Positions 230 to 15,009 of a stretch of 32,000 nucleotides of DNA are shown here, one piece after another (position 1 is the first letter of the stretch; each line of letters opens with the position of its first letter). A model generated the notes under the pieces. That model was not told the origin of the DNA. It did not search any database and saw only the letters and a program-made list of their open reading frames with translations. Source of the DNA: Mycobacteroides sp. CBMA 271. GTDB taxonomy: Bacteria > Actinomycetota > Actinomycetes > Mycobacteriales > Mycobacteriaceae. The translations under genes and the position numbers were made by a program. The DNA lies in contig NZ_VTHB01000006.1 in the NCBI RefSeq assembly GCF_009729205.1, positions 233,546 through 265,545 on the forward strand, read 5' to 3'.

Positions 230-1116
230 GGCATGTATGTCACCGGCAGCGTGGCCGTGAGGAATCTGCGTTCGGCGAACTCGTAGGAGTAGGGCGTCAT
301 CTCGTCGTCCAAGGCCTGGCCATAGTGATCCGCGAGTTCACGCCCGGTGGTCGTCTGCGTTAGCCACCCGTGCCCCGACAACCACTCGCCGGAAGGTGTC
401 CGGTCGTCGCTCGCTTGCGCGTGAGAGAGTTCTTCTGCCTGAAACATGTTGGGCGCCAGTGCATCACGGACGTCTGCCCAGGGGTGGCCGGAAGGCGCGA
501 TCCCGTCGGTATCAGTGGCAATGATGCTGCCCAGCGCCGACATCTCGATGACTCGCTCGAAGAGGGCGTCATGGCTCCTGCCAGGCAGGTGTGACACGAG
601 CGCTTCGGCGAGCCAGGCGGTGGGAAGGTCTGGGTCAAATCCTGCCGTCGTCAGATCGGACTGCCACGGCCCGCTGAGGAATGTGCCGACCGGCCGTCGA
701 TCGGCGTGCGGCTCCGAACCGATGTCGTCCACAACGGCTTGCTTGAAGCTCAGCAGTTCGGGGTAGTCAACCTCGAAGACGGTCACGTCCGCGGGCCAGT
801 CGAGCCGGTATGCGCGGGTGTCTAGGCCGCCGGCCAAGAGCACCACCTGGCGGGTGCCGGAATGTGCCGCGGCGACCAGGGAGTCATCATAATGACGGGT
901 CATCAACGCTCGGCACCGTGCGATGAACAATGCGTAGGCGCCCGCATCGTCCGTAGAGCCGGTGTGGGCCGATTCGAGTAATGCGCGCGTGTGGGGATCG
1001 CCCGAGGCAAGAACCAAATGTTCGGCGAGGGGGTCGATGAACCAGGGAACTGTTCGGTGCGACTCGATGGCGCGAGACGCTGTGAGTGTCAGTTGAATTC
1101 GTCTACCGCGGAACAA
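226..1116 (-). CDS. Class I SAM-dependent methyltransferase (mycobacterial putative O-methyltransferase / leucine carboxyl methyltransferase-like family)
   Basis: 296-aa ORF. VVLLAGGLDTRAYRL is the hallmark SAM-binding segment of this large mycobacterial paralog family. DPLAEHLV near the N-terminus and EVDYPELL also fit the family. Confidence 0.8.
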   Translation of the reverse strand: MFRGRRIQLTLTASRAIESHRTVPWFIDPLAEHLVLASGDPHTRALLESAHTGSTDDAGAYALFIARCRALMTRHYDDSLVAAAHSGTRQVVLLAGGLDTRAYRLDWPADVTVFEVDYPELLSFKQAVVDDIGSEPHADRRPVGTFLSGPWQSDLTTAGFDPDLPTAWLAEALVSHLPGRSHDALFERVIEMSALGSIIATDTDGIAPSGHPWADVRDALAPNMFQAEELSHAQASDDRTPSGEWLSGHGWLTQTTTGRELADHYGQALDDEMTPYSYEFAERRFLTATLPVTYMP

Positions 1117-1229
1117 CTCGGTTCACCCCCTGCGGTGGCACAGCAATCTGGCGACGACTCATCAACATCAGGTCCAGATTATCGGACAGGTTGCTGCGCG
1201 AACGTGCGCGTTTCGCTGTCCTGATAACA

Positions 1230-1273
1230 AGATCTCCCCCGTCTCGACCGAGAGCCGAGCCCGGGGGAGATCT
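1230..1273 (-). terminator. Stem-loop downstream of the first ferritin gene
   Basis: Perfect 12-bp inverted repeat agatctcccccg (1230..1241) / cgggggagatct (1262..1273) with a 20-nt loop that contains its own tctcg/cgaga pair. It lies 20 nt past the ferritin stop (1293) on the minus strand. There is no clean U-tract. Confidence 0.5.
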
Positions 1274-1292
1274 GTGGGCTGTTTCTGATCGC

Positions 1293-1838
1293 TTAGAGCG
1301 AGCCACCTGCCGCCGGCGGCGCGGTGGGATCGCTGGACGCGACGGAGATCTCTCGGGCCACGAACTCCTCGAGGTCGAAGTAGTTGTCCCCGGCACGCTC
1401 GGCGACCGTGAGCAGCGTGTCCATGAGGGCGACCTCTTCCACCTGCTCCTTGAGGAACCACTGCATGAACTGCTCGCCGATGTAGTCGCCCTCATCCCGC
1501 GCGGTGCGCGCAAGCTCGGTGACCTGATCGGTGACCGTCTGCTCCTGAGCGAGGGCCAGGGCAAGTGGCTCGCGTGGTGCGGTGAATCCGTTGGTGACCG
1601 CACCAACGGCGGGGATCTCGACGGAGACCTGTCGATCGATCAGGTACCGAACGATCATCATCGCGTGATTGCGTTCCTCGACCGCCTGCTTGTAGAAATG
1701 CGCGGCGAGCTGTGGGAGGTCGGCGTCGTCGAAATACGCACCAATTGCAATATATTGCTGAGACGCGGTGAACTCGTGGCCGATTTGGTCGTGGAGGAGC
1801 GCGTTAAATTTCGTCTTAGGGGTGTCGGTCGCGGTCAT
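1293..1838 (-). CDS. bfrB: Ferritin (BfrB-type, non-heme), paralog 1
   Basis: Read from the internal Met at 1838 (MTATDTPKTKFNALLHDQIGHEFTASQQY...) the protein is 181 aa and near-collinear with M. tuberculosis BfrB as I recall it. Shared segments: KTKF..L...QI.NEFTA.QQY.AIA.YFD..DLPQLA.HFY.QAVEERNHAMM, GEQFMQWFL.EQ.EEVALM, and a C-terminal AAGG tail. The 10 extra codons of the ORF track are probably upstream read-through. Confidence 0.9.
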   Translation of the reverse strand: MTATDTPKTKFNALLHDQIGHEFTASQQYIAIGAYFDDADLPQLAAHFYKQAVEERNHAMMIVRYLIDRQVSVEIPAVGAVTNGFTAPREPLALALAQEQTVTDQVTELARTARDEGDYIGEQFMQWFLKEQVEEVALMDTLLTVAERAGDNYFDLEEFVAREISVASSDPTAPPAAGGSL

Positions 1839-1890
1839 GAATTCGACAATAGACCAGGTCAGGGGCATTGTCAGCCAAGGTCAACCTTAA

Positions 1891-1909
1891 TGAGGTTACC
1901 GTCACCTAA
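1891..1909. promoter_or_regulatory. IdeR-box-like site (iron box) upstream of ferritin paralog 1
   Basis: tgaggttaccgtcacctaa matches the IdeR consensus TTAGGTTAGGCTAACCTAA at 14 of 19 positions by hand count. It sits in a visibly AT-rich spacer 53 nt upstream of the 1838 start. Confidence 0.45.
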
Positions 1910-1947
1910 GTTGCATGCGGATATTGCGTGGGCCAATTGATAAATTC

Positions 1948-1966
1948 TTAAGTTAGCCAAAGTTAA
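1948..1966. promoter_or_regulatory. Second IdeR-box-like site upstream of ferritin paralog 1
   Basis: ttaagttagccaaagttaa matches TTAGGTTAGGCTAACCTAA at 14 of 19 positions by hand count. Tandem IdeR boxes upstream of bfrB are the known arrangement in M. tuberculosis. Confidence 0.45.
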
Positions 1967-2010
1967 TTTCTTTACACCGACAATTGGAAATCTCTGTGCG
2001 CAAAATTAAT

Positions 2011-2568
2011 CTAGGCCGCTCCTCCTGCGGCAGGGGGCGCGGTCGGATCCTGGTTAATGGGGCGATTGAGTTCACGCTGCACGAAGTTCTCTAGGTCGAA
2101 CAGGTCGCGATCGGCGCGATCGACAACCGTCAGCAGGGTGTCCATGGTGGCGACCTCCTCCACCTGCTCCTTGAGGAACCACTGCATGAACTGCTCGCCG
2201 TAGTAGTCACCCGACGAGCGGGCCGCGCGGGCCAGCGCGGTGATCTGATCGGTGACGCGCTTCTCTTGCTCGAGCGCGAGGGCGATGGGCGCCCGCGCAT
2301 CGGCGAAATCGTTGACGACGGGATCGACGCCCGGGATCGTGACAGCCACGTTCTTGTCGATGAGGTAGCGGATGATCATCATCGCGTGAGTGCGTTCCTC
2401 GATCGACTGCGCGTAGAAGCGCTTGGCGAGCTGCGGCAGGTCGGCATCGTCGTAGTAGACCGCGATCGCGATGTACTGCTGCGAAGCCGTGAATTCGTTG
2501 CGGATTTGGTCACGCAAGAGTTCTAGGAACGGCGAGGACGCGCGTGCGTGGAGATCGGTGGTAGCCAC
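2011..2568 (-). CDS. bfrB: Ferritin (BfrB-type), paralog 2
   Basis: 185-aa ORF. It contains FLELLRDQIRNEFTASQQYIAIAVYYDDADLPQLAKRFYAQSIEERTHAMMIIRYLID and GEQFMQWFLKEQVEEVATMDTLLTV, and ends PPAAGGAA. It is clearly paralogous to the gene at 1293..1838. Confidence 0.9.
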   Translation of the reverse strand: MATTDLHARASSPFLELLRDQIRNEFTASQQYIAIAVYYDDADLPQLAKRFYAQSIEERTHAMMIIRYLIDKNVAVTIPGVDPVVNDFADARAPIALALEQEKRVTDQITALARAARSSGDYYGEQFMQWFLKEQVEEVATMDTLLTVVDRADRDLFDLENFVQRELNRPINQDPTAPPAAGGAA

Positions 2569-2586
2569 AGCGAAAAGCCTAGTGCG

Positions 2587-3828
2587 TCAAGGCGTCGGTG
2601 TGGTCGGGTCGGGCAACAGGTCGGCAGGAATCTGCTGACCGGTGCGCAGGGCCTCGAACAGGCGTCCCGAGGCGTCCTCGTCCCAGGTGACGATGTCGCC
2701 CGACCAGTTCGAGGAGAACGAACCGATGGGCATCGTCAGGGTCTGTACGGAACCGGCGAGGGCCCAGCCCAATTGGGTTAAGTTCCAGCTGTGATCGCCT
2801 TGCGCGATGGTGATGGCATCGGCGGTCGAGGTGGCCAGCGGATACCAGCGGAACGGATTGGCCCAGACCGCCGGACTGTTTATCCGGTGAAACAGCGCCG
2901 CCATAAACGCCCGCTGATGCGTCATGCGATCCAGGTCGGCGCGCGGCGTCGCTCGGCTGCGCACGTATCCAAGTGCGTTGGGTCCGTTGAGCATTTGACA
3001 TCCAGGCGGCAAGTTGATCCCGGCCAGTGGATCCTCGATGGGCTCATCAAGGCACATCGAGACGCCGCCGATCGCGTCGACAACCGAGGCGAATCCGCCG
3101 AACCCGACCTCTGCGTAGTGATCGATGCGCAGGCCGGTGGCCTGTTCGACGGTTTGAGTGAGCAACGCCGGGCCGCCCAACGTGAACGCGGCGTTGATCT
3201 TGTCGCTGCCGTATCCGGGGATCGGGACGTACGAATCTCGGGGGAGCGACACCATGGTGGCCGCTCCGCCGTCGTAGAACGGGGGTATATGTACCAACAA
3301 AATGGTGTCGGTTCGGCCGTCACCGGTATCTCCGCCGGTAGCGAGCTCTGCCTCCTGTTCTGGGCTGAGGGCCTGACGGCTGTCGGATCCGACCAGAAGC
3401 CAGTTGGTGCCACTGCTGGACGCAGGCCGCTCCGGGTAGTCGGTGAGGGCGTCGACATGGCGCAACCGCCCGTCCAGCCAGAAGGTCGTGCCGATGATGG
3501 CGCAGAACCCCACGAGTACGAGCGTCATCGCAAACAGAAATGTTCGTCGTATCCAGGTGCCCCACCGCCGTTTACGTCGCGGGCGCGGCGGCCCAGGGGG
3601 AGGTGGTTTGGTCGGAGGCGCGGTCCGGCGCGGTCGAGGATCGCGTGAGGATGGCCGGGGTGGCGGCATCTGCCCGCGGCGCGGGGACGGCGGAGGGCCC
3701 GGCCGGCGTGCCGGATTGTCCCGCGGCGGGGGTGGCGGCTGCGGGTGACGGCGAATGACCTGACTGTTCTCTCGCCGCTGCGGGCGACGCCCACGGAAGG
3801 GATCAGTGGGCAGCGAAGACCCGGTCAT
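2587..3828 (-). CDS. LytR-CpsA-Psr (LCP) family cell-wall glycopolymer transferase with an Arg/Pro-rich cytoplasmic tail and one TM segment
   Basis: 413 aa. The LCP core reads TDTILLVHIP...MVSLPRDSYVPIPGYGSDKINAAFTLGGPALLTQTVEQATGLRIDHYAEVGFGGFASVVDAIGGV. The N-terminus is PPPP/RR-rich and is followed by the hydrophobic stretch FLFAMTLVLVGFCAIIG. Its position next to bfrB matches Rv3840 as I recall it. Confidence 0.85.
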   Translation of the reverse strand: MTGSSLPTDPFRGRRPQRRENSQVIRRHPQPPPPPRDNPARRPGPPPSPRRGQMPPPRPSSRDPRPRRTAPPTKPPPPGPPRPRRKRRWGTWIRRTFLFAMTLVLVGFCAIIGTTFWLDGRLRHVDALTDYPERPASSSGTNWLLVGSDSRQALSPEQEAELATGGDTGDGRTDTILLVHIPPFYDGGAATMVSLPRDSYVPIPGYGSDKINAAFTLGGPALLTQTVEQATGLRIDHYAEVGFGGFASVVDAIGGVSMCLDEPIEDPLAGINLPPGCQMLNGPNALGYVRSRATPRADLDRMTHQRAFMAALFHRINSPAVWANPFRWYPLATSTADAITIAQGDHSWNLTQLGWALAGSVQTLTMPIGSFSSNWSGDIVTWDEDASGRLFEALRTGQQIPADLLPDPTTPTP

Positions 3829-3851
3829 CGCGGCAGTCCCATGAGATCAGG

Positions 3852-4604
3852 CTAATGGAGCCAACCCAGGTGATCCCGGAGCAACGCGAACCCAACGAAA
3901 GCCACCGTGTCGATCACGCCATGGGCAACGACCAGCGGCCATAGCCGTCCGGTGCGATGCCAGACATATCCGAAGACCAGACCCATCACCAGGTTTCCGA
4001 TACCCGCAGACACGCCTTGGTACAGGTGATAGCAACCGCGCAGCACTGCCGAGGACGCGATGGCGGTCGCCGTTCCGTATCCCAGCTGCCGCAGCCGCAT
4101 CTGTAGGTACGCGACCACCACGACTTCTTCGGCCCAGCCGTTGGCGAATGCGGACAGCACTAAGACCGGAACTCGCCACCAGGTGTCATCGAGCGACGCC
4201 GGAATCACCTGGACGCTCAGGCCCATCCAGCGTGCGCCGACATACAGCGCAAGCCCCGGAAGCCCGATGAGGGCCGCCAATCCGAGCGCGCCAAGCCCGT
4301 CGGCTCGCCAGCGCCAGCGGCCCAGCCCGATCGATGACAACGTGAATCCACTGCGCCACAACAGGTATAAGGCCAGCACCCCCCACGCCACCAGCCGCGT
4401 GATCGACACCAGGTTCAGGCCGAGGTCGATCAGGCTGAGCTCGGCGCGACGCGGATTGAGCGCGACGGTCTGATTGGACAGCCCCGCCAATGCGGCGGAG
4501 GCGAACTGCAGAAGGGCGCTCACGGCGCTCATCCCGAAGGAGATGGCGAGCACGATCCCGATCTCGACGCGGATCGCGCGTGGCGAGATGTCCGATTCGG
4601 CCAT
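3852..4604 (-). CDS. CPBP family intramembrane glutamic endopeptidase (CAAX protease-like)
   Basis: Starting at Met 4604 (MAESDISPRAIRVEIGIVLAISFG...) gives a 250-aa polytopic protein. It has the EE motif (NGWAEEVVVVAYL) and His motifs (CYHLYQG, VVAHGVIDT). The upstream 112 codons of the ORF track have non-protein-like composition and overlap the divergent gene. Confidence 0.7.
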   Translation of the reverse strand: MAESDISPRAIRVEIGIVLAISFGMSAVSALLQFASAALAGLSNQTVALNPRRAELSLIDLGLNLVSITRLVAWGVLALYLLWRSGFTLSSIGLGRWRWRADGLGALGLAALIGLPGLALYVGARWMGLSVQVIPASLDDTWWRVPVLVLSAFANGWAEEVVVVAYLQMRLRQLGYGTATAIASSAVLRGCYHLYQGVSAGIGNLVMGLVFGYVWHRTGRLWPLVVAHGVIDTVAFVGFALLRDHLGWLH

Positions 4605-4646: not shown

Positions 4647-5336
4647 GTGTCCGATGTGGTGAGCACTCCGCGCTATGTAGCTTCGCCCGACGGGGTGCGG
4701 TTGAGCCTGACCGTGTCCGGCGAGGGGCCACCGTTGGTGATGGTGCACGGCGCGATGGATTCCGGTGCGACGTGGTCCGGTGTGGCTATGGAGCTGGAAC
4801 GGGACTTCACCTGCTTCGTCGTGGACCGGCGTGGTCATGGTGCGAGTACCGACGCGGCGGAGCACAGCCTGGCGCGGGAGGCCGACGACGTCATCGCGGT
4901 CGCTGCCGAGGTGGGGCCCGATGCGGTGATACTCGCCCATTCCTACGGCGCCGTCGTCGTGCTGGAGGCGCTGCGCCGCGGCCTGGATGTGGCGTCGGTA
5001 GTCCTCTACGAGCCGCCGCTGCCGGTCTCGGATCGAGTGTTGGCTGCGAATCGGGAGGCGGCCGAGTCGCTGCGGACGAGGTCGACGATCGTCGTTCGGG
5101 AATCAGAAGCGGTGCAGGAATGTGTCGGAGTGCTCGGTGAGTACACCCGGGTGGCGACCCCGATGCTGCTGCTGGAGGGGACGTATTCGCCGATGCAATT
5201 CCGCGAGCCGGTGGGTTACCTGGCGCAGCGGGTGGCCGGAGCGCGCGTCAAAGAGCTTGCCGGACAAGACCATTTTGCCCATCGCAAGGCTCCGGCGATG
5301 TTCGCCGCGGTGCTCCGCGAGCTGTTGCTGGGCTAG
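4647..5336 (+). CDS. Alpha/beta hydrolase fold protein (short form)
   Basis: 229 aa. PLVMVHGAMDSGATW is oxyanion/HG-like, VVDRRGHGAS fits the fold, the nucleophile elbow is AHSYGA, and a C-terminal His lies in QDHFAH. The start codon is uncertain (GTG at 4647 or 4656). Confidence 0.7.
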   Translation: MSDVVSTPRYVASPDGVRLSLTVSGEGPPLVMVHGAMDSGATWSGVAMELERDFTCFVVDRRGHGASTDAAEHSLAREADDVIAVAAEVGPDAVILAHSYGAVVVLEALRRGLDVASVVLYEPPLPVSDRVLAANREAAESLRTRSTIVVRESEAVQECVGVLGEYTRVATPMLLLEGTYSPMQFREPVGYLAQRVAGARVKELAGQDHFAHRKAPAMFAAVLRELLLG

Positions 5337-6118
5337 ATTTTGCGGGCGCGCAGCCCGTTGAGGAACGGGCAGCCGGCCAGAATGCGCAGTGCCTGGCTCA
5401 AGCCCGCGGTGTCATCGACGGGTTCGTTGAAGGGCAGCCGCACGTCATGGTCGCCGCCGGCGCCTTCCACACGTAGTTGGATGCCGTAGCGGTCGATGCC
5501 GAGCAGCCGCACCTCGCCGTGTTGCAGGTTCAGCGGAAGCCGCCGCGCCAATCGCTCGACGAGATCTCGGTGGTCCTGATCGATATGCGACAGCCACCCG
5601 GCCTCAAGGGCGCAAAAGGGATCGGGACGCGCTCCGAGCAAGGCAGAGACGTCCACTGATTCGGCTCCGGTGGAATCGGCGACAACGACGGATTCGACGG
5701 TCAGGCACAGCAGTGCCGAGCCCGGTTCCGTGCGCAGCCGCATGTCGGTGCGGATGTCCAGGAGTGCCGGGTTGGGTGTGCGGCTGGCGATGACGTCGAC
5801 GATGGCGCGGGCCTCCCGATCGGAAGCTGCCACCACGTTGCCGCGCACCCAGACCAGCGATCGGACCGGCTCGCGCAGCGGCAGCGGTGCCTGATCGGTG
5901 AGCTCCAGCAGTGCCGGCATCCCGGACCGACCGGCGGCGAGCACCGTCGCCGCCGTGGCGCTTTCCGACGGCACGGCGACCGCGAAGGTGCCGTCGTCGA
6001 ATAGATGGTGCAGCGCGGTACCGACCACGTCGGCACCGGCGATGGCGAGGGTCGAGCTCGCGGCCCGTGCGCAGGCCGAACGAACACGCTCGGCAGTGGT
6101 GGGCGGTGCTGCGGTCAT
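5333..6118 (-). CDS. Conserved hypothetical protein, DUF2470-type C-terminal domain (PNPOx/split-barrel-like N-terminus; Rv3839-like)
   Basis: 261 aa. The C-terminal part, HIDQDHRDLVERLARRLPLNLQHGEVRLLGIDRYGIQLRVEGAGGDHDVRLPFNEPV, resembles the DUF2470 pattern (H.N.DH...L...... v.l..iDr.G..lr....... RlpF). The position between the LCP gene and pheA fits Rv3839. The family assignment is from memory only. Confidence 0.55.
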   Translation of the reverse strand: MTAAPPTTAERVRSACARAASSTLAIAGADVVGTALHHLFDDGTFAVAVPSESATAATVLAAGRSGMPALLELTDQAPLPLREPVRSLVWVRGNVVAASDREARAIVDVIASRTPNPALLDIRTDMRLRTEPGSALLCLTVESVVVADSTGAESVDVSALLGARPDPFCALEAGWLSHIDQDHRDLVERLARRLPLNLQHGEVRLLGIDRYGIQLRVEGAGGDHDVRLPFNEPVDDTAGLSQALRILAGCPFLNGLRARKI

Positions 6119-6251
6119 GGTGACCCTCCTGATAACCCGGCGAACTGAGGTAAGCCTAAGTTAACAACGGACCGCGGAGAGTGCAAGGGACACCTGTGCT
6201 GACACCTGTGTCGGAGGTTCGCCGGGTAGTCGAGCGCCTAAGGTTTGACGT

Positions 6252-7178
6252 GTGCAGCGCATCACGTACCTGGGGCCGGAGGGCACGTTCTCCGAGGCCG
6301 CGCTGACCAAGCTGCGAACGACGGGGCAGATCCCCGGCTCGGCGGATGTGGAGTCGGTGCCCGCGGGCAGTCCGCGCGACGCATTGGTGCAGGTGCAAGA
6401 GGGTGCGGCACGCTATGCGTGCGTACCAATCGAGAGTTCGCTTGAAGGGCGGGTAGTACCGACCCTCGACACGCTGGCGGCGGGTGAGCCGCTGCAGGTT
6501 TTTGCCGAGACGGTGTTGCCGGTGTCCTTCACTATCGCGGTGCGCCCCGGCATCACGGCAGACGCCGTCAAAACCGTCGCCGCCTTCCCGATAGCCGCTG
6601 CGCAGGTGCGGGAGTGGTTGGCGACCCACCTGCCAAACGCCGAGCTGGTTCCCGCCAACTCAAACGCGGCGGCGGCCGAGGACGTGAAGGCGCAGCGGGC
6701 CGATGCTGGTGTGTCGACCGCGTGGGCCGCGCAGCGTCTTGGGCTGGATGCCCTGGCCAACGGTGTGGTGGATGAGGCGAACGCCCACACCCGCTTCGTG
6801 TTAGTGGGGCAGCCGGGGCCGCCTCCGGCAGCGACCGGTTCGGATCGCACCTCGATGGTCTTGGCACTGCGGAATGTTCCGGGAGCGCTTGCTGGCGCTC
6901 TGAATGAATTCGCGATTCGGGATATTGACCTGACGTTTATCGAATCCCGGCCCACCCGCACCGGTCTGGGTGTCTACCGATTCTTCCTCGACTGTGTCGG
7001 CCACATCGACGACATCGCCGTCAGTGAGGCACTTAAGGGACTGCATCGTCGTTGTGAGGACGTGCGGTATTTGGGATCGTGGCCAAGAGGAACGACAGCG
7101 ACGGGAGGCGCCAACCCACCCGAGCTGGACGAGGCGTCCGGGTGGCTCTCCGAGACACGGGAGGGAAAGCTGCGATGA
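6252..7178 (+). CDS. pheA: Prephenate dehydratase
   Basis: 308 aa with a GTG start. RITYLGPEGTFSEAA is the canonical N-terminus. The PDT domain is followed by an ACT domain with the ESRPTR motif (FIESRPTRTGLGVYRFFLD). Confidence 0.9.
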   Translation: MQRITYLGPEGTFSEAALTKLRTTGQIPGSADVESVPAGSPRDALVQVQEGAARYACVPIESSLEGRVVPTLDTLAAGEPLQVFAETVLPVSFTIAVRPGITADAVKTVAAFPIAAAQVREWLATHLPNAELVPANSNAAAAEDVKAQRADAGVSTAWAAQRLGLDALANGVVDEANAHTRFVLVGQPGPPPAATGSDRTSMVLALRNVPGALAGALNEFAIRDIDLTFIESRPTRTGLGVYRFFLDCVGHIDDIAVSEALKGLHRRCEDVRYLGSWPRGTTATGGANPPELDEASGWLSETREGKLR

Positions 7179-7861
7179 GCGGGCGGTTGGTCCTGGTCCG
7201 CCATGGGCAGTCCTACGGAAACGTTGAGCGCAGACTCGACACCAAACCGCCGGGCGCTCCGCTGACCGATCTGGGGTTGCAGCAGGCTCGACTGTTCGCG
7301 GAGCAGTACGGGGGACATCCGCCGGCGGTGCTTATCCATTCGGTGGCGGTGCGCGCCGTGGAGACTGCCGCCGGTATCGCCGAACACCTTGGGGTGCAGG
7401 CGCTTGCGGCCGAGGGATTGCACGAGGTGCAGGCCGGCGAGCTGGAGGACCGCACCGACATGGAGGCATTTGAGATATTCGATCGCACCTATGAGCGTTG
7501 GCATTTCGGGGATCTCGACGCCCGGATGCCCGGCGGCGAGTCCGCCCAGGATGTTTTCGACAGGTACCTGCCGGTGGTCGCTGATCTGCGGTTGCGTCAC
7601 TTGGAGAACGATGCGTCGGCCGGGGATGTGGTGATAGTGAGCCATGGGGCGGCGATTCGCTTGGTGGGCGCGACCCTTGCCGGGGTGGATCCGGGTTTTG
7701 CGGTGAACCGTCACCTGCGCAATGCGGAAGCGGTTGTGTTGGCACCGATTACCGATGGCAGGTGGAGCTGCGTGCACTGGGGAGATGCGGCAGCGCCCTT
7801 CCCGCATCAGGTGGCGACCAGCGCCGAGGAGTTGGCGCAGTCGCCCGACCCGATGGGCTAG
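7175..7861 (+). CDS. Histidine phosphatase family protein (phosphoglycerate mutase-like)
   Basis: The start ATG at 7175 overlaps the pheA stop (ATGA). LVLVRHGQSYGN is the RHG catalytic motif and VIVSHGAAIR carries the second catalytic His. 228 aa. Confidence 0.85.
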   Translation: MSGRLVLVRHGQSYGNVERRLDTKPPGAPLTDLGLQQARLFAEQYGGHPPAVLIHSVAVRAVETAAGIAEHLGVQALAAEGLHEVQAGELEDRTDMEAFEIFDRTYERWHFGDLDARMPGGESAQDVFDRYLPVVADLRLRHLENDASAGDVVIVSHGAAIRLVGATLAGVDPGFAVNRHLRNAEAVVLAPITDGRWSCVHWGDAAAPFPHQVATSAEELAQSPDPMG

Positions 7862-8085
7862 CTCGCTTGCGCTATCTCATTCTCGCAATTGCATTGCGTA
7901 ACAATGCAATCGACGACGAGGCTGTGCCGTAGTAGGTAGGGTCCATCGCAGTCGGCGGCGGTGCACTCGGCGTAGCGAGCGGAATGCACGATCAACGTGC
8001 CGTGGCAATGATCAACGTCGCGGGCGCAGTCACGGCATGCAACACCGCAGCTGATGGCGTGCCGCCAGTCCGGTGACTTCTTCAT
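7858..8085 (-). CDS. Hypothetical small Cys/His-rich protein (75 aa)
   Basis: From Met 8085: MKKSPDWRHAISCGVACRDCARDVDHCHGTLIVHSARYAECTAADCDGPYLLRHSLVVDCIVTQCNCENEIAQAS, with 9 Cys. Third-position GC is only moderate, and the 3' end coincides with the AT-rich palindrome, so coding status is uncertain. No family recognised. Confidence 0.35.
   Translation of the reverse strand: MKKSPDWRHAISCGVACRDCARDVDHCHGTLIVHSARYAECTAADCDGPYLLRHSLVVDCIVTQCNCENEIAQAS
7883..7913. terminator. AT-rich imperfect inverted repeat just past the phosphatase stop (candidate terminator or protein-binding palindrome)
   Basis: attgcatt (7888..7895) pairs with aatgcaat (7903..7910) around the 7-nt loop gcgtaac. The stem extends by tcg/cga across a 2-nt bulge. 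The palindrome gcaattgc overlaps it. No T-tract follows. Confidence 0.35.
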
Positions 8086-9160: not shown

Positions 9161-9813
9161 AGCAAGTTCTCACGTTTGAGGACAGTGAGCAGCTCGTTGT
9201 GGTCGCGCACAACGTGATCGGCGCCCGCATCGCGTAACCGCGTTTCGGATGCCATTCCACCCGTCATCGCAACGCTGGTGAGACCCAGGGATCGGGCGAT
9301 GCCGACTTCCTCGGGAGTGTCGCCGACGATCACGGTGCGCTGCGGTGAGATGTTCTGCTCACGCATGTACCGATCCAGCATCTCGCCCTTTGTGAATCCT
9401 TGGTACTGGGATTCCCGGCTGGCATAAGCCAAGATGTGGGCGATCTTGCTCTCCACCCCCAGCAGAGCGATGTGCTCGCGGATGAGGCTCTCGATGTGGT
9501 TGCTGAGAATCAGCACGTCCGCGGCGTCTTTGAAAGCCTCAAGCGCACGCTCGGCGCCGACACGCAACCGCGACGCGGCGGCTAACGGTTGGTAGCTGCC
9601 GAAGAACAGTTCGTTGTCGTTTTCTTGTGCCGCAGACGGCAGTCCCAGTTTCTCGTAGAGGCGGCTGAACGGGAATTCGCACACCGCACGCAATGTATCC
9701 ACGTCAATCTCAGCTAGCTTGAAATGAGTGAGGACGGCGTTGATCGACGTCGTGAACGCGCCGGCATCATCCAATAGCGTTCCGTTCCAGTCATAAACGA
9801 CGGTTAGACGCAT
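9157..9813 (-). CDS. HAD-IA superfamily hydrolase (phosphoglycolate-phosphatase-like) with an atypical motif I
   Basis: 218 aa. Motif I is VVYDWNGTLLDD, where Asn replaces the usual second Asp of DxDGT. Motif II is LILSN, the motif III Lys lies in FTKGE, and motif IV is VGDTPEE. Confidence 0.8.
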   Translation of the reverse strand: MRLTVVYDWNGTLLDDAGAFTTSINAVLTHFKLAEIDVDTLRAVCEFPFSRLYEKLGLPSAAQENDNELFFGSYQPLAAASRLRVGAERALEAFKDAADVLILSNHIESLIREHIALLGVESKIAHILAYASRESQYQGFTKGEMLDRYMREQNISPQRTVIVGDTPEEVGIARSLGLTSVAMTGGMASETRLRDAGADHVVRDHNELLTVLKRENLL

Positions 9814-9817
9814 CCGA

Positions 9818-11416
9818 TCACCCTGCCATCTCTTCCTTCCCGAGGTGCTGTTCGAGGATCCGTAGGTACTCCTCGTCAGCGCGGACTTGGCCTATCGGCG
9901 TAGGCATACGAAACGTAAAGGGTGAGCAATCGTAGTCGTACTCGCCGCCAGGCAGAACGCGCGTCAATCGATGAAAGGGTAGGTATGTAACGCGCGTGAC
10001 GCCGATGGCCTTGGCGACGAGCGACTCGAAGAAATTGAGCAATTGCGGGTTCCTGGAGTTCAATTCGAGCCACGGCCGCTCTGGTTTGAAGGCAAGGGAG
10101 CTCCAGATCTGCCAGAAAATCAGCTCTTCCAGTGAGTTGACCCCCAATCCGTAGTAGCTCGGGGAAATGAATGGCGGCGATCCCACCACCCAGTGCACTG
10201 AGTGTGCGCCAGCGTCGAACAGCAGTCGAGCCACGGCCTGGCTGGTGTCCCCGCGGATCAACGCCTCGTCTACCACGACGATGTCGCGGCCGGTGACATC
10301 GATATCCCGCAGGCTGTACTTGCGTTCGATCAGCGCTTTGCGTTCACCCGGGATGCCGATGAGAGTGCGCTGGAGCAGCCCGATCTCTACCAGCTCTTCC
10401 CGCACGACCGCTTTCCCGTGTGGGTGCGCCTGCAGATACTCAAAAAGCCCGTCGGCGTATGGAATACCCGTCTTTGGCATGGACGCAACAACGAGGCCAC
10501 CTGTCCCCGTTGTGGTCTCGCCCAGCAGGGCTCCCAGTTCGAAACCTATCTTCCGGCGGGTATCCCAATGTGTCTCGCCATGGAAACGGGTGCGCGGATG
10601 CCCTAGGTAGAGGGTTTCGAAGACACATTTCTTGGGTCGGTGCACGGCCCTTCCGACGCACCCCACCTTGATCTCGCCTTCGCAGGCCGAATCGATGATC
10701 GCGATCTGGCTCGGCTGCAGCTCGATGAGGCTACCCGTCTCGGCAATGGCACTGTCGATCTCAGAGGCCACCGCGATCACATCGGAACGCTGGAGCACGC
10801 CCAAGGGGCGTAGGCCCTGCCAATTTCGGTACGCCACGACAATCCCGGCATCGTCAACGAGAACCGCGCTCACTGCGCCGTCAACTTTGAGGTCGACTTC
10901 CCGGAAAACATCCACATAGTCGGGCCTAAGGCCGCGGTTCACATACTTTGACAGACAGATCTGCTCCACCACCCGCGTAAGGATCTCGACGTCCGATCCC
11001 GCCGAGATCTCCATCCCAGCCGCTGAGAGTTCTTGTGCCAGTTCCGAAGTGTTTACTAGCCCGCCATCCATTGCCACGTGCAGCGTAAACGGCGCCGCGG
11101 GCTGCACTCCGGTGACTGATCGATCCGAGGCAAACGGCTGGTTGCCCAAGTCGTTCGATGTCTGGTGAACGTGGCCTAGGAGTGCGCGTAGCGGTGTGTT
11201 CCCAAGGCCTTTCGCGAGTGCTGCCTCGTCCACGCGGACGGCGGGGAACTCCGACAGATACCCGGATGGGGCTCCGCTGTTTTGTTGAGCGATCAGTGAA
11301 AACCCCCGCTGTCCGCGATGGCTGAGCTGCGCGACTAGCTGGCTTATCAGCCCCGCATTCTCCGATGGTTCGATTCCGCCGCCGTCTGCCCTTGCCAATG
11401 CCAAAATGCCAGCCAT
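9818..11416 (-). CDS. Amidophosphoribosyltransferase (PurF)-like protein: degenerate class-II amidotransferase domain plus type I PRTase domain
   Basis: 532 aa, collinear with E. coli PurF as I recall it. Paired segments (this protein / PurF): MAGILAL / MCGIVGI, LSHRGQ / LQHRGQ, QPF / QPF, SDVEIL / SDSEIL, GLRPL / GIRPL, CVFETLYLGHP / CLFEYVYFARP, RTLIGIPGER / RTFIMPGQ, and the PRPP loop IVVVDEALIRGDTS / VLLVDDSIVRGTTS. Confidence 0.8.
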   Translation of the reverse strand: MAGILALARADGGGIEPSENAGLISQLVAQLSHRGQRGFSLIAQQNSGAPSGYLSEFPAVRVDEAALAKGLGNTPLRALLGHVHQTSNDLGNQPFASDRSVTGVQPAAPFTLHVAMDGGLVNTSELAQELSAAGMEISAGSDVEILTRVVEQICLSKYVNRGLRPDYVDVFREVDLKVDGAVSAVLVDDAGIVVAYRNWQGLRPLGVLQRSDVIAVASEIDSAIAETGSLIELQPSQIAIIDSACEGEIKVGCVGRAVHRPKKCVFETLYLGHPRTRFHGETHWDTRRKIGFELGALLGETTTGTGGLVVASMPKTGIPYADGLFEYLQAHPHGKAVVREELVEIGLLQRTLIGIPGERKALIERKYSLRDIDVTGRDIVVVDEALIRGDTSQAVARLLFDAGAHSVHWVVGSPPFISPSYYGLGVNSLEELIFWQIWSSLAFKPERPWLELNSRNPQLLNFFESLVAKAIGVTRVTYLPFHRLTRVLPGGEYDYDCSPFTFRMPTPIGQVRADEEYLRILEQHLGKEEMAG

Positions 11417-11978
11417 TTGAACCCCGACTTCCCAGTGCCTTGACTGTTGGAATCTTGCGTGGTTGCAACGCGAATCAGGTGGTGCTGCTCTCTCAGGCCC
11501 GCGCCTCGGAGCGCGACGGCGATGGCCGCTCCCAGTCTTCTAAGTCCAACACAGGCGAGGGTTACGCGCGCGCCGAAGATTTTCGATGACCTGCCTGCTG
11601 ACGAGTTGACCCGCCGTGGCACCGATGCCCATTCTCGCTAGAATTAATGAAAACCCTTCTGCTGCACAGGCATCGGGCACAACGTACTGCTTCGCAGGTG
11701 TTGGGGTGCGTACCGTAAGAAAAGCGCAAAGAGAATGGAGGTGATGTCGCCGGTCGGAACATTGATCGGGTGGATACCGGAAATTCCTTTAAGCGCAACC
11801 AGATTCCAAAGCCCGTGATTGCTCTAGATACTTGGCTCGCCCAGTTCGGCATGGCCCTGGCGGTCGCAGAGGGCACACGCTGTGATCGGTGTCGACGTGC
11901 AGATATCGGTGTCTTCGTCGAATCTGCTGCCGAACCCGGCGCCTTCGACCTGAACCCCGTGCTGGGGTTGGTCGGTGC

Positions 11979-13013
11979 TTACGATGTGCCTGGCTGGGAG
12001 TTGTCGAGTTCGGTGATCTGACGGATGAAGTGCGCCATGTCGTCGATGGCGGCGCGAGCATCCGGCAGAAAATCGGCGCCGATCTGGAAGTCATGTACTG
12101 CGTGATCCCAGATCTGTACCGTGCACGGGACGTTCGCCCCAGCGCAGCGCTGGGCCAACTGCTCTACATCTGCCAGCAGCACTTCGAGCGAGCCGACCTG
12201 AATGAAGGTCGGTGGCATCCCATTGAAGTCGTGATTCACCGGCGACCAAGCAGGATCCAACTGGCCGTCGGGGGCCATACCCATTTCGCCCGGCACCGCG
12301 AGGATAACGCCGGACAACATGGCGTCGTGTGCTTCGTTCGGGTGGCTCCTCTTGGCCGAACAATCGAGGTCTGCCCACGGTGAGATGGCGGCGATGCCAC
12401 CGGGCATCGGCAAGCCGGCCTCGCGGGTGGCGAGCGCCGCACTGAAGGCCAGACCGCCACCGGCGGAGTCGCCGGCGAACACGATCCTTTCGGCTGCGAA
12501 CCCCTGGTCGAGCAGGTACCGATAGGCCTCTACGGCATCCGCCACAGATTCGGTGACATGCGCCAGCGGCAGCTGCCGATAGTCCACCGCCAAAAGACGC
12601 ATTCCGGCCGCGCGGGCGACGCGTGCAGTCATCCGTCGATGGCTGTGTAGACCACCCAGAATGAACGCCCCGCCGTGGAAGTACAGAATCGCACCCTGCC
12701 CAGGATTCTCGGGATCGGGAAGGTTCTTGTGCCATAACCATTCCGCACGGAAGCTGGGGAATGTCACCGCGCGCCGCCGGGTGCCGAAGCTCGGCCGCAA
12801 GGGGAAGGCCGCTAGCTCCAGGAAGTTGGCAGCCCGAAAACCGCGTGTCCGCAGCGAGGGATGGCGCGCGGCGATTCGTGCCAGGCCCTCCAGCGGTCGT
12901 CGGAGCATCAGCCGCGCCGTGGAGTGGGAAAACCGTTGCAAGGCCGAGCCGCTACCCAGCCTATCGATGGTTACCGTGCCACCGGGTTCAGAGATAGGTG
13001 CAGGATCGTTCAT
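11979..13013 (-). CDS. Alpha/beta hydrolase fold-3 (hormone-sensitive-lipase family) esterase/lipase
   Basis: From Met 13013 (MNDPAPISEPGG...) the protein is 344 aa. It has the oxyanion motif YFHGGAFILGG, the nucleophile motif FAGDSAGGGLA, and a C-terminal catalytic His in WDHAVHDF. The 198 upstream codons in the ORF track are Arg-rich read-through. Confidence 0.85.
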   Translation of the reverse strand: MNDPAPISEPGGTVTIDRLGSGSALQRFSHSTARLMLRRPLEGLARIAARHPSLRTRGFRAANFLELAAFPLRPSFGTRRRAVTFPSFRAEWLWHKNLPDPENPGQGAILYFHGGAFILGGLHSHRRMTARVARAAGMRLLAVDYRQLPLAHVTESVADAVEAYRYLLDQGFAAERIVFAGDSAGGGLAFSAALATREAGLPMPGGIAAISPWADLDCSAKRSHPNEAHDAMLSGVILAVPGEMGMAPDGQLDPAWSPVNHDFNGMPPTFIQVGSLEVLLADVEQLAQRCAGANVPCTVQIWDHAVHDFQIGADFLPDARAAIDDMAHFIRQITELDNSQPGTS

Positions 13014-13192
13014 GCGAGCACCTCCACGGGCTGCTTCTCGTAGTCGAGAAGTTCCTCGCGGGTGCGTTGCTGGGATTCGGCGCGGCGGACCCGCTGTCGC
13101 TGGTCGGACACCGCCACCTCCTCGGTTGAGACATTTGGCGCAGAGGTCTGGATGTCTACTGCAGACAGTTTTGCATACTGCCGATATCCCAA
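13010..13192 (-). CDS. Candidate small ORF translationally coupled to the esterase (33-60 aa depending on start)
   Basis: The stop TGA overlaps the esterase ATG (gcATGAac). The 3' two-thirds has high third-position GC like real genes here. A GAGGAG Shine-Dalgarno-like element directly precedes GTG codons at 13117 and 13111, giving VSDQRQRVRRAESQQRTREELLDYEKQPVEVLA. No family recognised. Confidence 0.25.
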   Translation of the reverse strand: MGYRQYAKLSAVDIQTSAPNVSTEEVAVSDQRQRVRRAESQQRTREELLDYEKQPVEVLA

Positions 13193-13231
13193 GGGGGGCT
13201 GTTCTGGGCTGGCGCGGCCGGATGCCCGGAC

Positions 13232-13975
13232 CTATTCGATGCCGAGACTCTTGAGCGCGTGGGACATCCGCTGCGCTGTCGCCGGCGTCAGCGTCGCCCA
13301 CAGCGCACCGTCGCCGGAAGTGCTCGGTGTCGACATGATCCGGCCAAAGGCAGTGTCGTACACCCCAACTCCACCGGGTGCGCGATCGGTCACTCCGTCG
13401 ATTCGGCGGATTGCGGTGATCTCGGTCATCGCGCCGCGACGTGCCATCGCCTTCGCGACAGTGACCGCGTCGGCCTTGGTGGCGCCGAGTGCCATGAGTC
13501 GACGAGCCATATCGCCAGGCTCGGCATTGAGCGCCAAGGCAAGCTGTTCGGCAGGTGCGTTGATGGACCCGAACTTCAGCGGAGTGGCGTCGCCCAGATA
13601 CCGCCACAGCTCGGCACCGAGTGAACCGGTGACCGACCGCATGGCCACGCCCTCGCCGTCATTGACCAGCAGCACGTACGCCTCGCCATGCTCAACCAGG
13701 CACAGGCGCAGCATCTGCGACCCGGCCCAGCGCCGCACCGCGACCTGACCGGTGGCCTTGCTGGCCGAGGTCAACATGTCGCGCAGCGTCGGGTGAAGGT
13801 CCTCGCCCTTCAGCAGATTGCGTTCCTTGAGTCTGGTGCGTGCACCCTCCAGGGCATCCCGGTGCTCGACTTCGTCCTCATGGCGCGGACCGGCGGCCAA
13901 CACCACCGGCAACAGGTCATTGCCGGTGATCTCGCGGGTCAGTTCCAGTTCGTCGAAGTCCAGGCGGACGGTCAC
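13232..13975 (-). CDS. espG: EspG-family type VII secretion chaperone-like protein
   Basis: 247 aa, and the GTG start overlaps the PPE stop (GTGA). The N-terminus LDFDELELTREITGNDLLPVVL matches the EspG opening pattern (l..dE...l.e.lg...lP.vL). Size and later segments (TEITAIRR..., VGVYDTAFGRI, ALWATLTPAT) fit EspG architecture. The position directly after a PE-PPE pair is typical. Confidence 0.7.
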   Translation of the reverse strand: MTVRLDFDELELTREITGNDLLPVVLAAGPRHEDEVEHRDALEGARTRLKERNLLKGEDLHPTLRDMLTSASKATGQVAVRRWAGSQMLRLCLVEHGEAYVLLVNDGEGVAMRSVTGSLGAELWRYLGDATPLKFGSINAPAEQLALALNAEPGDMARRLMALGATKADAVTVAKAMARRGAMTEITAIRRIDGVTDRAPGGVGVYDTAFGRIMSTPSTSGDGALWATLTPATAQRMSHALKSLGIE

Positions 13976-15009
13976 AGGTCAGCGCTCGCGCCGAGAACCG
14001 GAGGGGCCACCGCTCCCTTGGAGCCGCCACGTTCGAACAGCTTTGAGGCGTCGACGTTCTCGAAGTCGGCGACCTTGTCGCTACCCGACTTGTTGGTCAG
14101 GATGTCCGGCAGGTCGACGGGCTTGCTCTCATCACCCATGAAGACGCCGGTGGCGCCGATGGCAGTGAGCTTGTCGTCGTCCTCGTCTTCATCCTTCTTG
14201 CCGCCGTTGCCGACCTTGACGCCCTTACTGGCAGCGGCGCCTGCAGCCATCGCGCCGCCGGCCATCATGCCGCCCATGCCGCCCATACCCATGCCCATGC
14301 CGGTACCGCTGGCAGAGGTCGGGTTGCCGGCCAGCGATACGGCGGCCGCTCGGGCGCTCTGTGTGCCGGGAACCGAGTCCGGGCTCAGTGGGCTCGGGCC
14401 CATCTCGGACATGCCGACTCCGGCTGCGCTGACGCCGGTGTTGCCGCTGTTGGCTCCCGACTTCTCCTCCGGGTACTTGATGACCTCGGGTGCAGGCGGG
14501 AATTCGACCACCTTGGAGGCCGGCTCGCTGGCCGACTCGTAGGTCTCCATGGCCTTCGCGGCCTGTAGGTCGAGGTCCTGCTCCATACCCTCGGTGGTCG
14601 CGGAGAGCCCGAACAGCGGTCCGCCTGCGGACAGTGCCTCAGCCTTGGCCTTCTCCAGCTGGGCCAGGTCGCTGATGTGCGGCATATCCAGGACAGCGGT
14701 GCCGTACGACTCGGCGTACGTGTTCGAGGTATCGCTGACCTCCTGGGTCAGACCCGCCATCTTCTCCACCCACTCGGTGAAGGGGGTCAGCTTGGTCAGC
14801 GCGTCCTCGGCATGCGGCCCGCGGTACCCCTCGGTGAGCAGTTCGCCCACGCGCAGGCTGTTCTCGTGCACCTCGGCGAACGCGGTGCTGATCTCTTGCC
14901 AGGCCAGCGCACTGTCCACGACGTGAGTCGGTCCAGCGCCCGTGGTCAGGTCCAGGGCCAACCTCTTCGCCTTGCGTGCAACCCAGTTGACGCCAGTGAA
15001 TCCGGTCAT
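13972..15009 (-). CDS. Divergent PPE-family protein (no literal Pro-Pro-Glu motif) with a Gly/Met-rich and acidic C-terminal region
   Basis: 345 aa. The N-terminal ~170 aa follow the PPE helical pattern: TTGAGPTHVVDSALAWQEISTAFAE..., YRGPHAEDALTKLTPFTEWVEKMAGLTQEVSDTSNTYAESYGTAV (compare W.G.AS.AM..A..PY..WL...A..AE.....A..AA.AYE.A). It lies 3 nt downstream of a PE-like gene. Confidence 0.65.
   Translation of the reverse strand: MTGFTGVNWVARKAKRLALDLTTGAGPTHVVDSALAWQEISTAFAEVHENSLRVGELLTEGYRGPHAEDALTKLTPFTEWVEKMAGLTQEVSDTSNTYAESYGTAVLDMPHISDLAQLEKAKAEALSAGGPLFGLSATTEGMEQDLDLQAAKAMETYESASEPASKVVEFPPAPEVIKYPEEKSGANSGNTGVSAAGVGMSEMGPSPLSPDSVPGTQSARAAAVSLAGNPTSASGTGMGMGMGGMGGMMAGGAMAAGAAASKGVKVGNGGKKDEDEDDDKLTAIGATGVFMGDESKPVDLPDILTNKSGSDKVADFENVDASKLFERGGSKGAVAPPVLGASADL

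Follow-up and report, generated by a model that had tools for sequence, protein, structure and literature searches.

PurF is a textbook channelling enzyme, and in a separate amidotransferase lineage the AsnB-derived beta-lactam synthetase and carbapenam synthetase have lost Cys1, the N-terminal cysteine. PurF is also a new tuberculosis drug target (PMC12328218). A PurF homologue without the N-terminal Cys has been described in crenarchaea: PurF' carries Ala or Val at this position, has been proposed to depend on ammonia, and is encoded by genes that adjoin purF and other pur genes (Brown et al. 2011, PMC3261824). In the literature that we searched, we found neither a description of a bacterial Cys1-less PurF family, its function or its cassette, nor an equivalent in the bacterial PurF branch of the Cys1-less AsnB derivatives. 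Here we describe a PurF-like protein of this kind, encoded at positions 9818-11416 of a 32,000-nucleotide stretch of Mycobacteroides sp. CBMA 271 (the window), together with the hydrolase of the HAD superfamily and the dehydrogenase that complete its three-gene cassette. We consider it slightly better than an even chance that the protein is a glutaminase-dead transferase dependent on phosphoribosyl pyrophosphate (PRPP), which would start a three-step accessory pathway and not housekeeping purine synthesis.

The initial annotation of this locus had set the N-terminus of the protein, MAGILAL, against MCGIVGI of E. coli PurF, had described the R-Y-P-T segment as replaced by H-Q-T-S and the oxyanion segment H-N-G-N-L as replaced by M-D-G-G-L, and had read the PRPP loop of the phosphoribosyltransferase (PRTase) half as kept. 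Alignment to PurF sequences and structures (MAFFT to E. coli PurF, whose numbering is used throughout, and HMMER to Arabidopsis and B. subtilis PurF) upheld the change from Cys1 to Ala2 together with the other glutaminase changes; the two segment replacements were recovered by both methods, the PRPP-site residues were conserved, and the E. coli sequence was 100% identical to PDB entries 8w7d and 1ecb. Cys1 is replaced by Ala2, Arg73 by His84, Tyr74 by Gln85, Pro75 by Thr86 and Thr76 by Ser87; in the oxyanion segment, His100 is replaced by Met116, Asn101 by Asp117 and Asn103 by Gly119, and Gly102 is kept as Gly118. The glutaminase half retains Arg26, Gly27, Gln28, Gly102, Asp127 and Glu129, and of the [4Fe-4S] ligands of B. 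subtilis-type PurF only Cys264 is present. In the PRTase half, Tyr258, Pro303, Thr304, Arg332, Thr333, Asp366, Arg371, Gly372, Thr374 and Ser375 are conserved. The PRPP loop reads V380-VVDEALIRGDTS-392, compared with VDDSIVRGTTS in canonical PurF, so that its acidic pair, D383-E384, is D-E and not D-D. An insertion of approximately 25 residues follows the YYG..EL motif of the PRTase domain.

These features were followed through 20 sampled rhizobial members of the family and both Mycobacteroides copies, the second of which is the M. abscessus orthologue. Ser occupies position 2 in 19 of the 20 rhizobial proteins sampled, and in 53 of the 54 rhizobial loci whose start can be read; the residue is Ala in the window protein, Bradyrhizobium STM 3562 and Paraburkholderia CNPSo 3076, and Asp in the M. 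abscessus orthologue, whose N-terminus is fMet-Asp-Arg-Gly-Leu-Ala-Leu; about 60 further family members have Ser or Ala at the Cys1 position. Since Ser, Ala and Asp all occur here, an N-terminal nucleophile is not essential to the function of the family. No member has Tyr74, Asp replaces Asn101 in both Mycobacteroides copies and in 14 of 20 rhizobial members, and Asn103 is Ala or Gly across the family; Arg73, which has become His in the two Mycobacteroides copies, persists in 14 of the 20 rhizobial members. The loop motif DEALIRGDTS is conserved in 19 of the 20 and in both Mycobacteroides copies, and four family-specific changes are fixed in the PRTase half, namely, D367E, S368A, F334L and T373D, the last also found in part of the nearest sister clade. 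Replacement of the equivalent Cys by Ala or Ser costs PurF and AsnB their function (PMC3261824); because of this and of the variable position 2, the glutaminase half is best read as catalytically dead. The earlier proposal of a dead glutaminase joined to a retained PRTase is thus supported at the level of sequence, as the losses extend across the family and the nearest sister clade keeps the residues in question.

Between the window and M. abscessus copies, the ratio of nonsynonymous to synonymous substitution rates (dN/dS) is 0.155 over the whole PurF-like gene (N-domain, 0.21; PRTase domain, 0.10), 0.095 over the HAD gene and 0.20 over the dehydrogenase gene. These values indicate that all three cassette genes are under purifying selection and that the N-domain is still constrained despite its predicted loss of glutaminase activity.

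The absence of Cys1 is not an artefact. The reading frame upstream of the ATG meets a stop codon 39 codons before it, with no ATG, GTG or TTG in between, as the initial annotation had judged, and the first Cys of the protein is residue 154, so that propeptide cleavage could not expose an N-terminal Cys. A sequencing or start-site error, in which the true codon 2 would be Cys or a start had been missed, is rejected as having a negligible chance of being right, given the upstream stop without a start codon; it is refuted as well by (i) the same protein being on record in two contigs, (ii) the M. abscessus orthologue and all rhizobial members, which lack the Cys too, and (iii) the change of several other catalytic residues.

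Profile and structure searches place the protein among PurF relatives at some distance. Pfam GATase_7 matched residues 99-222 with 35 bits, Pfam Pribosyltran stayed below threshold (15 bits against a cut-off of 26), and the PurF equivalog TIGR01134 scored 106.9 bits against a cut-off of 350. The best solved relatives found with HMMER are all PurF (Arabidopsis 6lbp, E = 5e-26; B. subtilis 1ao0, 2e-21; E. coli 1ecb, 1e-15), and by sequence the protein is accordingly classed as a distant PurF homologue. An AlphaFold model built with a 65-sequence alignment reached a predicted local distance difference test score (pLDDT) of 89.1 and a predicted template-modelling (TM) score of 0.91, an earlier, shallow family alignment having given a pLDDT of 64. 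In Foldseek searches with this model, the top 17 matches were all PurF, with TM scores of 0.68-0.84 over more than 500 aligned columns spanning both domains; the model thus predicts a complete two-domain PurF fold, with an N-terminal nucleophile (Ntn) glutaminase-type domain and a type-I PRTase domain. The coordinates of the protein, its landmarks and the other parts of the cassette are collected in Table 1.

Table 1. Features of the cassette and their positions in the window
Feature	Position	Strand	Remark or basis
PurF-like protein, 532 amino acids, ATG start	9818..11416	minus	first cassette gene; member of Cys1-less PurF-derived family
Ntn/class-II amidotransferase-like N-domain, residues 1-260, without catalytic residues	10637..11416	minus	Pfam GATase_7, residue table
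Type-I PRTase C-domain, residues 261-532 and stop codon	9818..10636	minus	Pfam, alignment
Ala2 codon	11411-11413	minus	
His84-Gln85-Thr86-Ser87 in place of Arg73-Tyr74-Pro75-Thr76	11156..11167	minus	alignments
Met116-Asp117-Gly118-Gly119-Leu120 in place of His-Asn101-Gly102-Asn-Leu (oxyanion hole)	11057..11071	minus	alignments
PRPP loop VVVDEALIRGDTS, residues 380-392	10241..10279	minus	alignments
HAD-superfamily hydrolase, 218 amino acids	9157..9813	minus	starts 4 nucleotides after the PurF-like stop
Beta-hydroxyacid-dehydrogenase-family oxidoreductase, 306 amino acids	8240..9160	minus	ATG overlaps the HAD stop (ATGA)
Upstream intergenic region, 562 bp	11417..11978	minus	no sigma-54 pattern, no convincing sigma-70 match

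The family is small. A word-indexed search of 5.8 billion proteins returned only about 47 close relatives, the closest being the M. abscessus orthologue (82% identity, in a cluster of 43 sequences), followed by Bradyrhizobium and Rhizobium relatives at 37-46% identity; the next matches were canonical PurF at 25-28%. When one genome was scanned for each prokaryotic species, about 50 Bradyrhizobium species, one Mesorhizobium and Rhizobium calliandrae proved to carry the family, and none of the species-representative genomes of Mycobacteroides did. JGI metagenomes, when scanned, contributed no more than nine further loci, each of them Bradyrhizobium-like. Paraburkholderia members came from plasmid records and cluster look-ups, truncated on pBPHY02 of P. 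phymatum and full-length in CNPSo 3076. The family is thus found in two Mycobacteroides lineages, Bradyrhizobium, Mesorhizobium, Rhizobium and Paraburkholderia; outside Mycobacteroides, it occurs almost only in the nitrogen-fixation islands of legume symbionts. About 60 lineages have preserved the full length, and only truncated remnants are left in B. japonicum and B. diazoefficiens. Remnants were also recorded in B. jicamae (L058) and, as said, in P. phymatum (P0056 and P0316-P0318 are also in the set), whereas Bradyrhizobium sp. BWA-3-5 carries three copies, two chromosomal and one on a plasmid (L024, L026 and L027), and B. zhengyangense two copies on one contig (L036 and L055). Such variation in copy number and integrity suggests that the cassette is dispensable in some symbioses.

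Among 1.84 billion cluster representatives searched with HMMER, the next relatives, at 200-380 bits, share the insertion of about 25 residues and retain an MC(G/A) N-terminus, R-Y-x-T and F-N-G-N. In a neighbor-joining tree with 100 bootstraps, the Cys-less family was monophyletic in 100, with the Mycobacteroides pair sister to all rhizobial members in 89, and it grouped with this insertion-bearing, Cys-containing clade in 100 of 100 replicates. As the sister clade with the insertion keeps the Cys and the family is monophyletic, Cys1 was lost once, at the base of the family. The sister-clade genes are solitary among housekeeping genes (RuvX, FtsK and CarD), without a HAD or a dehydrogenase; the proteins are probably ordinary PurF of uncultured lineages and give no functional clue. 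The PurF-like gene is not a duplicate of the host's own purF, and it is mobile and horizontally distributed.

The genetic setting was surveyed by tblastn of the three window proteins against all fetched loci. The HAD gene lies directly 3' of the PurF-like gene in the window, in M. abscessus, in 51 of 54 rhizobial genome loci and in all nine metagenomic loci; the exceptions are L028, where it is inverted and displaced, and L033 and L034, where it was undetected. The dehydrogenase is present in about 31 of the 54 genome loci (directly after the HAD gene in 30) and in four of the nine metagenomic loci, with 45-51% identity to that of the window; loci of the B. elkanii type consist of the PurF-like and HAD genes only. 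In the window and the loci examined, pur genes never adjoin the PurF-like gene. The DNA shared with the M. abscessus contig (81% identity over 3160 bp) covers exactly the three genes and nothing outside them, and the M. abscessus copy adjoins two phage-type integrases. Because the shared DNA is limited to the three genes, integrases stand beside the M. abscessus copy and selection is purifying, we read the unit as a mobile, selected and translationally coupled three-gene operon, and not as a host purine gene.

In the window, the cassette sits in a mycobacterial core region, with PE/PPE/EspG, serS, a septum-formation protein, DUF5718, pheA, a phosphoglycerate-mutase-family protein (His_Phos_1), DUF2470, LytR and ferritins as neighbours, a region which we take to match Rv3834c-Rv3841 of M. 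tuberculosis. The G+C fraction is 0.60 over 9-12 kb, where the cassette lies, and about 0.65 on either side. No empty insertion site was recovered by exact look-up of the flanking esterase and pheA; as these flanking proteins matched only the window's own assembly (GCA_009729375.1), the insertion of the cassette is something we infer. Between the dehydrogenase and the phosphoglycerate-mutase-family gene, at 7858-8085 on the minus strand, lies a Cys-rich open reading frame (ORF) of 75 amino acids (MKKSPDWRHAISCGVACRDCARDVDHCHG...), which is called as a gene in the source assembly and lies beyond the DNA shared with M. abscessus. On its upstream side, the cassette is directly adjoined by 11979-15009 (minus strand), which encodes a hormone-sensitive-lipase-type esterase (a GESAG subfamily match), EspG and PPE, with PE farther away in the source contig; the esterase is 542 amino acids long as a mechanical ORF with a GTG start and 344 amino acids long in the gene call of the assembly. 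PADLOC returned no match for the three cassette proteins or their neighbours, and an anti-phage defence system was rejected on this ground.

Both partner enzymes carry signatures of their own. The window HAD (Pfam HAD_2, 44 bits against a cut-off of 23.8) has the motif I D8-W-N-G-T12 (9778-9792, minus strand) within D-W-N-G-T-L-L-D-D; the nucleophile Asp8, the motif II Ser, the motif III Lys and the motif IV GD..E are present, and the general acid/base position, Asp+2, is Asn in 49 of 49 non-redundant orthologues and also in more distant metagenomic homologues, one of them from Bacteroidota. This DWNGT group is an unusual HAD subfamily, and its chemistry may not be simple phosphate-ester hydrolysis. 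Its best solved relative, a weak match (E = 5e-7), is AlnB, which in alnumycin biosynthesis dephosphorylates a ribosyl-5-phosphate intermediate at its 5-position. A further DWNGT HAD, 39% identical to that of the window, occurs in a suf iron-sulfur assembly operon of an uncultured bacterium (L076, 7001-7687), between genes read as sufC and sufD from their Pfam domains, a setting quite unlike that of the cassette. The dehydrogenase matches PF03446 (NAD_binding_2) with 101.6 bits and PF14833 (NAD_binding_11) with 54 bits; it keeps the catalytic Lys motif G-x-x-x-K-x-x-x-N (GSAHKMKIVYN) and has a family-specific substrate motif, DAPVTRSPE, against DAPVSGG or DAPVTGG in relatives. No equivalog model scores it above its cut-off, the best being L-threonate dehydrogenase with 113 bits against 350. 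The possibility of an imine reductase was set aside, as the catalytic Lys of beta-hydroxyacid dehydrogenases is present.

One metagenomic contig (L077; JGI metagenome 3300079835) carries, within 1-4558, the HAD and the dehydrogenase at orthologue level (43%, with DWNGT, and 48%, respectively, with the same motifs), flanked on the dehydrogenase side by a ribose-phosphate diphosphokinase (131 bits in TIGR01251, whose cut-off is 113) and on the HAD side by a 383-amino-acid protein and then a PfkB sugar-kinase fragment; the contig is plasmid-like, with a relaxase and NikA at 4689-7012. The 383-amino-acid protein has no detectable similarity to the PurF-like protein, Pfam, NCBIfam or PDB, so here the HAD-dehydrogenase pair is found with PRPP-supply genes and this protein in place of the PurF-like enzyme. 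Judged by its gene content, this single contig independently ties the HAD-dehydrogenase module to PRPP supply.

Transposases surround the rhizobial loci, which are carried by symbiotic plasmids or symbiosis islands and have nifA- and fixB-like genes nearby. Of the 56 rhizobial upstream regions (L005-L058), 54 contain a sigma-54 promoter, TGG(C/T)AC-N5-TTGCT, at 52-178 bp from the start codon, against an expectation of 1.2 of 56 from mononucleotide shuffles, the loci being related and some of them duplicates; the GG and GC elements are nevertheless fixed and the five bases of the spacer variable. In 13 rhizobial loci, a perfect NifA upstream activating sequence, TGT-N10-ACA, lies about 100 bp further upstream. 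In dual RNA sequencing of P. phymatum nodules, Bphy_7471 showed a log2 fold change of -5.75 in nifA-mutant bacteroids (PMC8305402), and Bphy_7471 is BPHY_RS40825, the same gene as the P. phymatum homologue matched here. The cassette appears to be an unannotated member of the NifA regulon in many (dozens of) Bradyrhizobium symbiosis islands, where RefSeq labels the genes "hypothetical protein", "HAD hydrolase-like protein" and "NAD(P)-dependent oxidoreductase". The rhizobial upstream regions have no tts box, and neither nod-box-like sequences (15 of 56) nor FixK boxes (2 of 56) stand out. To our knowledge, actinobacteria are without sigma-54, so expression in Mycobacteroides must be driven differently; the upstream region of the window cassette has no sigma-54 pattern, and scans with simple sigma-70 and terminator patterns around the cassette gave nothing above shuffles.

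Several genes recur near the rhizobial cassettes, including those for a LacI regulator, a CoA-transferase III, a UPF0261/PEP_hydrolase/FAD protein, pyruvate kinase, a protein like dihydrodipicolinate synthase (DHDPS), aldehyde dehydrogenase and a NodU-like carbamoyltransferase. Fixed extra cassette members were looked for among them and rejected, the genes being variable island content. The LacI regulator and the CoA-transferase III gene recur in about 25 loci. A trio of UPF0261, PEP_hydrolase-like and 590-amino-acid FAD_binding_2 proteins was found within 10 kb in L001, L012, L015, L020, L025, L045 and L051, which come from distant rhizobia; it is often accompanied by an AsnC regulator, and loci of the B. 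elkanii type also have a second pyruvate kinase.

It is the operon partners and the rhizobial connection that carry most of the functional information. In the pathway that we propose, (i) the PRTase domain would move the 5-phosphoribosyl group of PRPP onto a small N-nucleophile, free ammonia or another, that comes from solution and not from glutamine; (ii) the HAD would remove the 5-phosphate; and (iii) the dehydrogenase would oxidise or reduce the product, so that an accessory metabolite of the ribosyl- or ribityl-amine type, not a purine precursor, would result. That PRPP is the substrate, that the steps run in this order, that the HAD acts as a phosphatase and that acceptor and product are of the kinds named are points which we infer. 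As a further possibility, to which we give somewhat less than an even chance, the product would be a previously unknown PRPP-derived compound of the N-ribosyl- or ribityl-amine type, made by a PurF active site that has been repurposed to accept a nucleophile other than glutamine-derived ammonia; it would be a NifA-controlled, bacteroid-specific metabolite of symbiosis in alpha- and beta-rhizobia, and mobile elements would have brought its pathway into Mycobacteroides. The initial annotation had also raised recruitment for a new PRPP-dependent reaction, and the fixed linkage to the HAD and the dehydrogenase favours such a reaction over an ammonia-dependent PurF.

Several considerations weigh against the proposed pathway: (i) if ammonia were the nucleophile, phosphoribosylamine (PRA) would be very labile, and its dephosphorylation would give an even less useful ribosylamine, so that, given this lability, the B. 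elkanii-type loci with only the PurF-like and HAD genes point to an acceptor other than ammonia; (ii) the PurF active site suits a very small nucleophile arriving via a channel, and the channel residues Tyr74 and Phe334 are changed; (iii) with DxN in place of the Asp+2 residue throughout the 49 orthologues, a plain phosphatase role for the HAD is uncertain; (iv) the PRPP-loop substitutions D367E, S368A and T373D could change which donor substrate is used; (v) the dehydrogenase is missing from about 40% of rhizobial loci; and (vi) the association with a PRPP synthetase comes from one contig, L077.

The main rival is a PRA synthase using PRPP and free NH3, which would supply ordinary purine or thiamine synthesis under conditions rich in ammonia and poor in glutamine. 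Ammonia-dependent activity survives mutation of Cys1 in PurF and AsnB, the window protein itself has retained PRTase residues and lost glutaminase residues, and N2-fixing bacteroids offer an ammonia-rich setting which would explain NifA control. The sigma-54/NifA promoter of the rhizobial loci and the response of Bphy_7471 in the nifA mutant (-5.75; PMC8305402) fit this explanation, and the same idea has been proposed for crenarchaeal PurF' (PMC3261824). However, the obligate linkage to the HAD and the dehydrogenase has no role in purine synthesis, the gene never adjoins pur genes and survives only as fragments in the model soybean strains B. japonicum and B. diazoefficiens and in P. phymatum, the mobile cassette also occurs in Mycobacteroides, which is non-diazotrophic, and Tyr74 and Phe334, needed for channelling and coupling, are replaced, so we regard an ammonia-dependent PRA synthase as rather unlikely.

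Loss of catalysis could also go further than the glutaminase half, leaving a non-catalytic PurF relic that acts as a PRPP- or nucleotide-binding regulator or as a scaffold for neighbouring enzymes, or a decaying gene. PRTase folds have been recruited as regulators in PyrR and PurR, and PyrR is a weak match of the window protein in profile and PDB searches; the truncated copies in several rhizobial lineages and the higher dN/dS of the N-domain (0.21) are in line with a relic too. Yet catalytic, and not only binding, PRTase residues are conserved across phyla at about 40% overall identity, the PRTase domain has a dN/dS of 0.10, the protein has no DNA- or RNA-binding domain, and full length is kept in the roughly 60 lineages mentioned above, and we therefore hold a relic to be distinctly improbable. 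At the other extreme, the N-domain could still be an Ntn amidohydrolase in which Ser1 (in rhizobia) or another residue releases an amine from a donor other than glutamine and channels it to PRPP. Ser serves as a nucleophile in other Ntn hydrolases, M-S-G-(V/I)-A-(G/A)-A-F is conserved in 53 of the 54 rhizobial loci whose start can be read, and the binders of the amino acid backbone, Arg26, Gly27 and Asp127, are kept, as is Arg73 in 14 of 20 members. Set against this are the Ala of the window protein, CNPSo 3076 and STM 3562 and the Asp of M. abscessus, the Asp at Asn101 in most members, the loss of Tyr74 in all, and the observation that C1S mutants of PurF and AsnB are glutaminase-dead (PMC3261824). 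A Ser1-dependent amidase is excluded for the window protein by its sequence and unlikely for the family, and the amidohydrolase explanation as a whole we consider highly unlikely.

If the preferred reading of a glutaminase-dead, PRPP-dependent transferase holds, a natural and conserved lineage without glutaminase chemistry that has kept its PRPP site shows how the PurF scaffold can be repurposed, and the cassette is a defined three-gene unit open to direct expression and assay. In rhizobia, it could encode a bacteroid metabolite not yet described, and it probably marks a NifA-controlled metabolite common to legume symbionts and a genus of opportunistic pathogens. In Mycobacteroides, it is an accessory mobile trait, and neither annotation nor target-based resistance analyses should treat it as purF.

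Compared with canonical PurF (E. coli 1ecb/8w7d, B. subtilis 1ao0 and Arabidopsis 6lbp), the window protein has the same two-domain architecture and fold (TM scores of 0.68-0.84), the PRPP loop, Thr304 of the pyrophosphate loop, Arg332-Thr333 of the flexible loop, Tyr258 and the backbone binders Arg26, Gly27 and Asp127. It differs in lacking Cys1, Tyr74, Asn101 and the Fe-S ligands, in the substitutions D367E, S368A, T373D and F334L, in the 25-residue insertion, in a sequence identity of only 20-25%, and in sharing its operon with a HAD and a dehydrogenase and not with pur genes. By its sequence it thus falls outside PurF as defined by profile score, Cys1, Asn101 and Arg73/Tyr74, while sharing the fold and the PRPP site. 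The absence of Cys1 is common to crenarchaeal PurF', from which the family is set apart by context and relatives: it is bacterial, mobile and linked to the HAD and the dehydrogenase, its nearest relatives are Cys-containing and of the bacterial type, and the window neighbours are the HAD, the dehydrogenase, the esterase and the phosphoglycerate-mutase-family (His_Phos_1) protein, with no pur genes.

The proposed order of reactions has parallels in two described routes. Decaprenyl-phosphoarabinose synthesis employs the PRPP transferase Rv3806c, the phosphatase Rv3807c and DprE1/DprE2, and the ribosyl tailoring of alnumycin employs AlnA, the HAD phosphatase AlnB and oxidoreductases; in both, as would be the case here, ribose-5-phosphate is attached, the 5-phosphate is removed and redox chemistry takes place on the ribosyl unit. 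The transferase folds, on the other hand, are unrelated to PurF (UbiA family and pseudouridine-glycosidase-like, respectively), and AlnB, in addition to its weak similarity (E = 5e-7), has a normal DxD motif where the cassette HAD has DxN. With respect to the beta-lactam and carbapenam synthetases, the likeness lies in an Ntn glutaminase domain kept as a non-hydrolytic module next to a partner domain with a new reaction, and the difference in the partner, which is an adenylating synthetase there and a PRTase in the window protein. We describe the protein as a class-II amidotransferase homologue in which a probably dead glutaminase domain is joined to a putative PRPP-dependent transferase.

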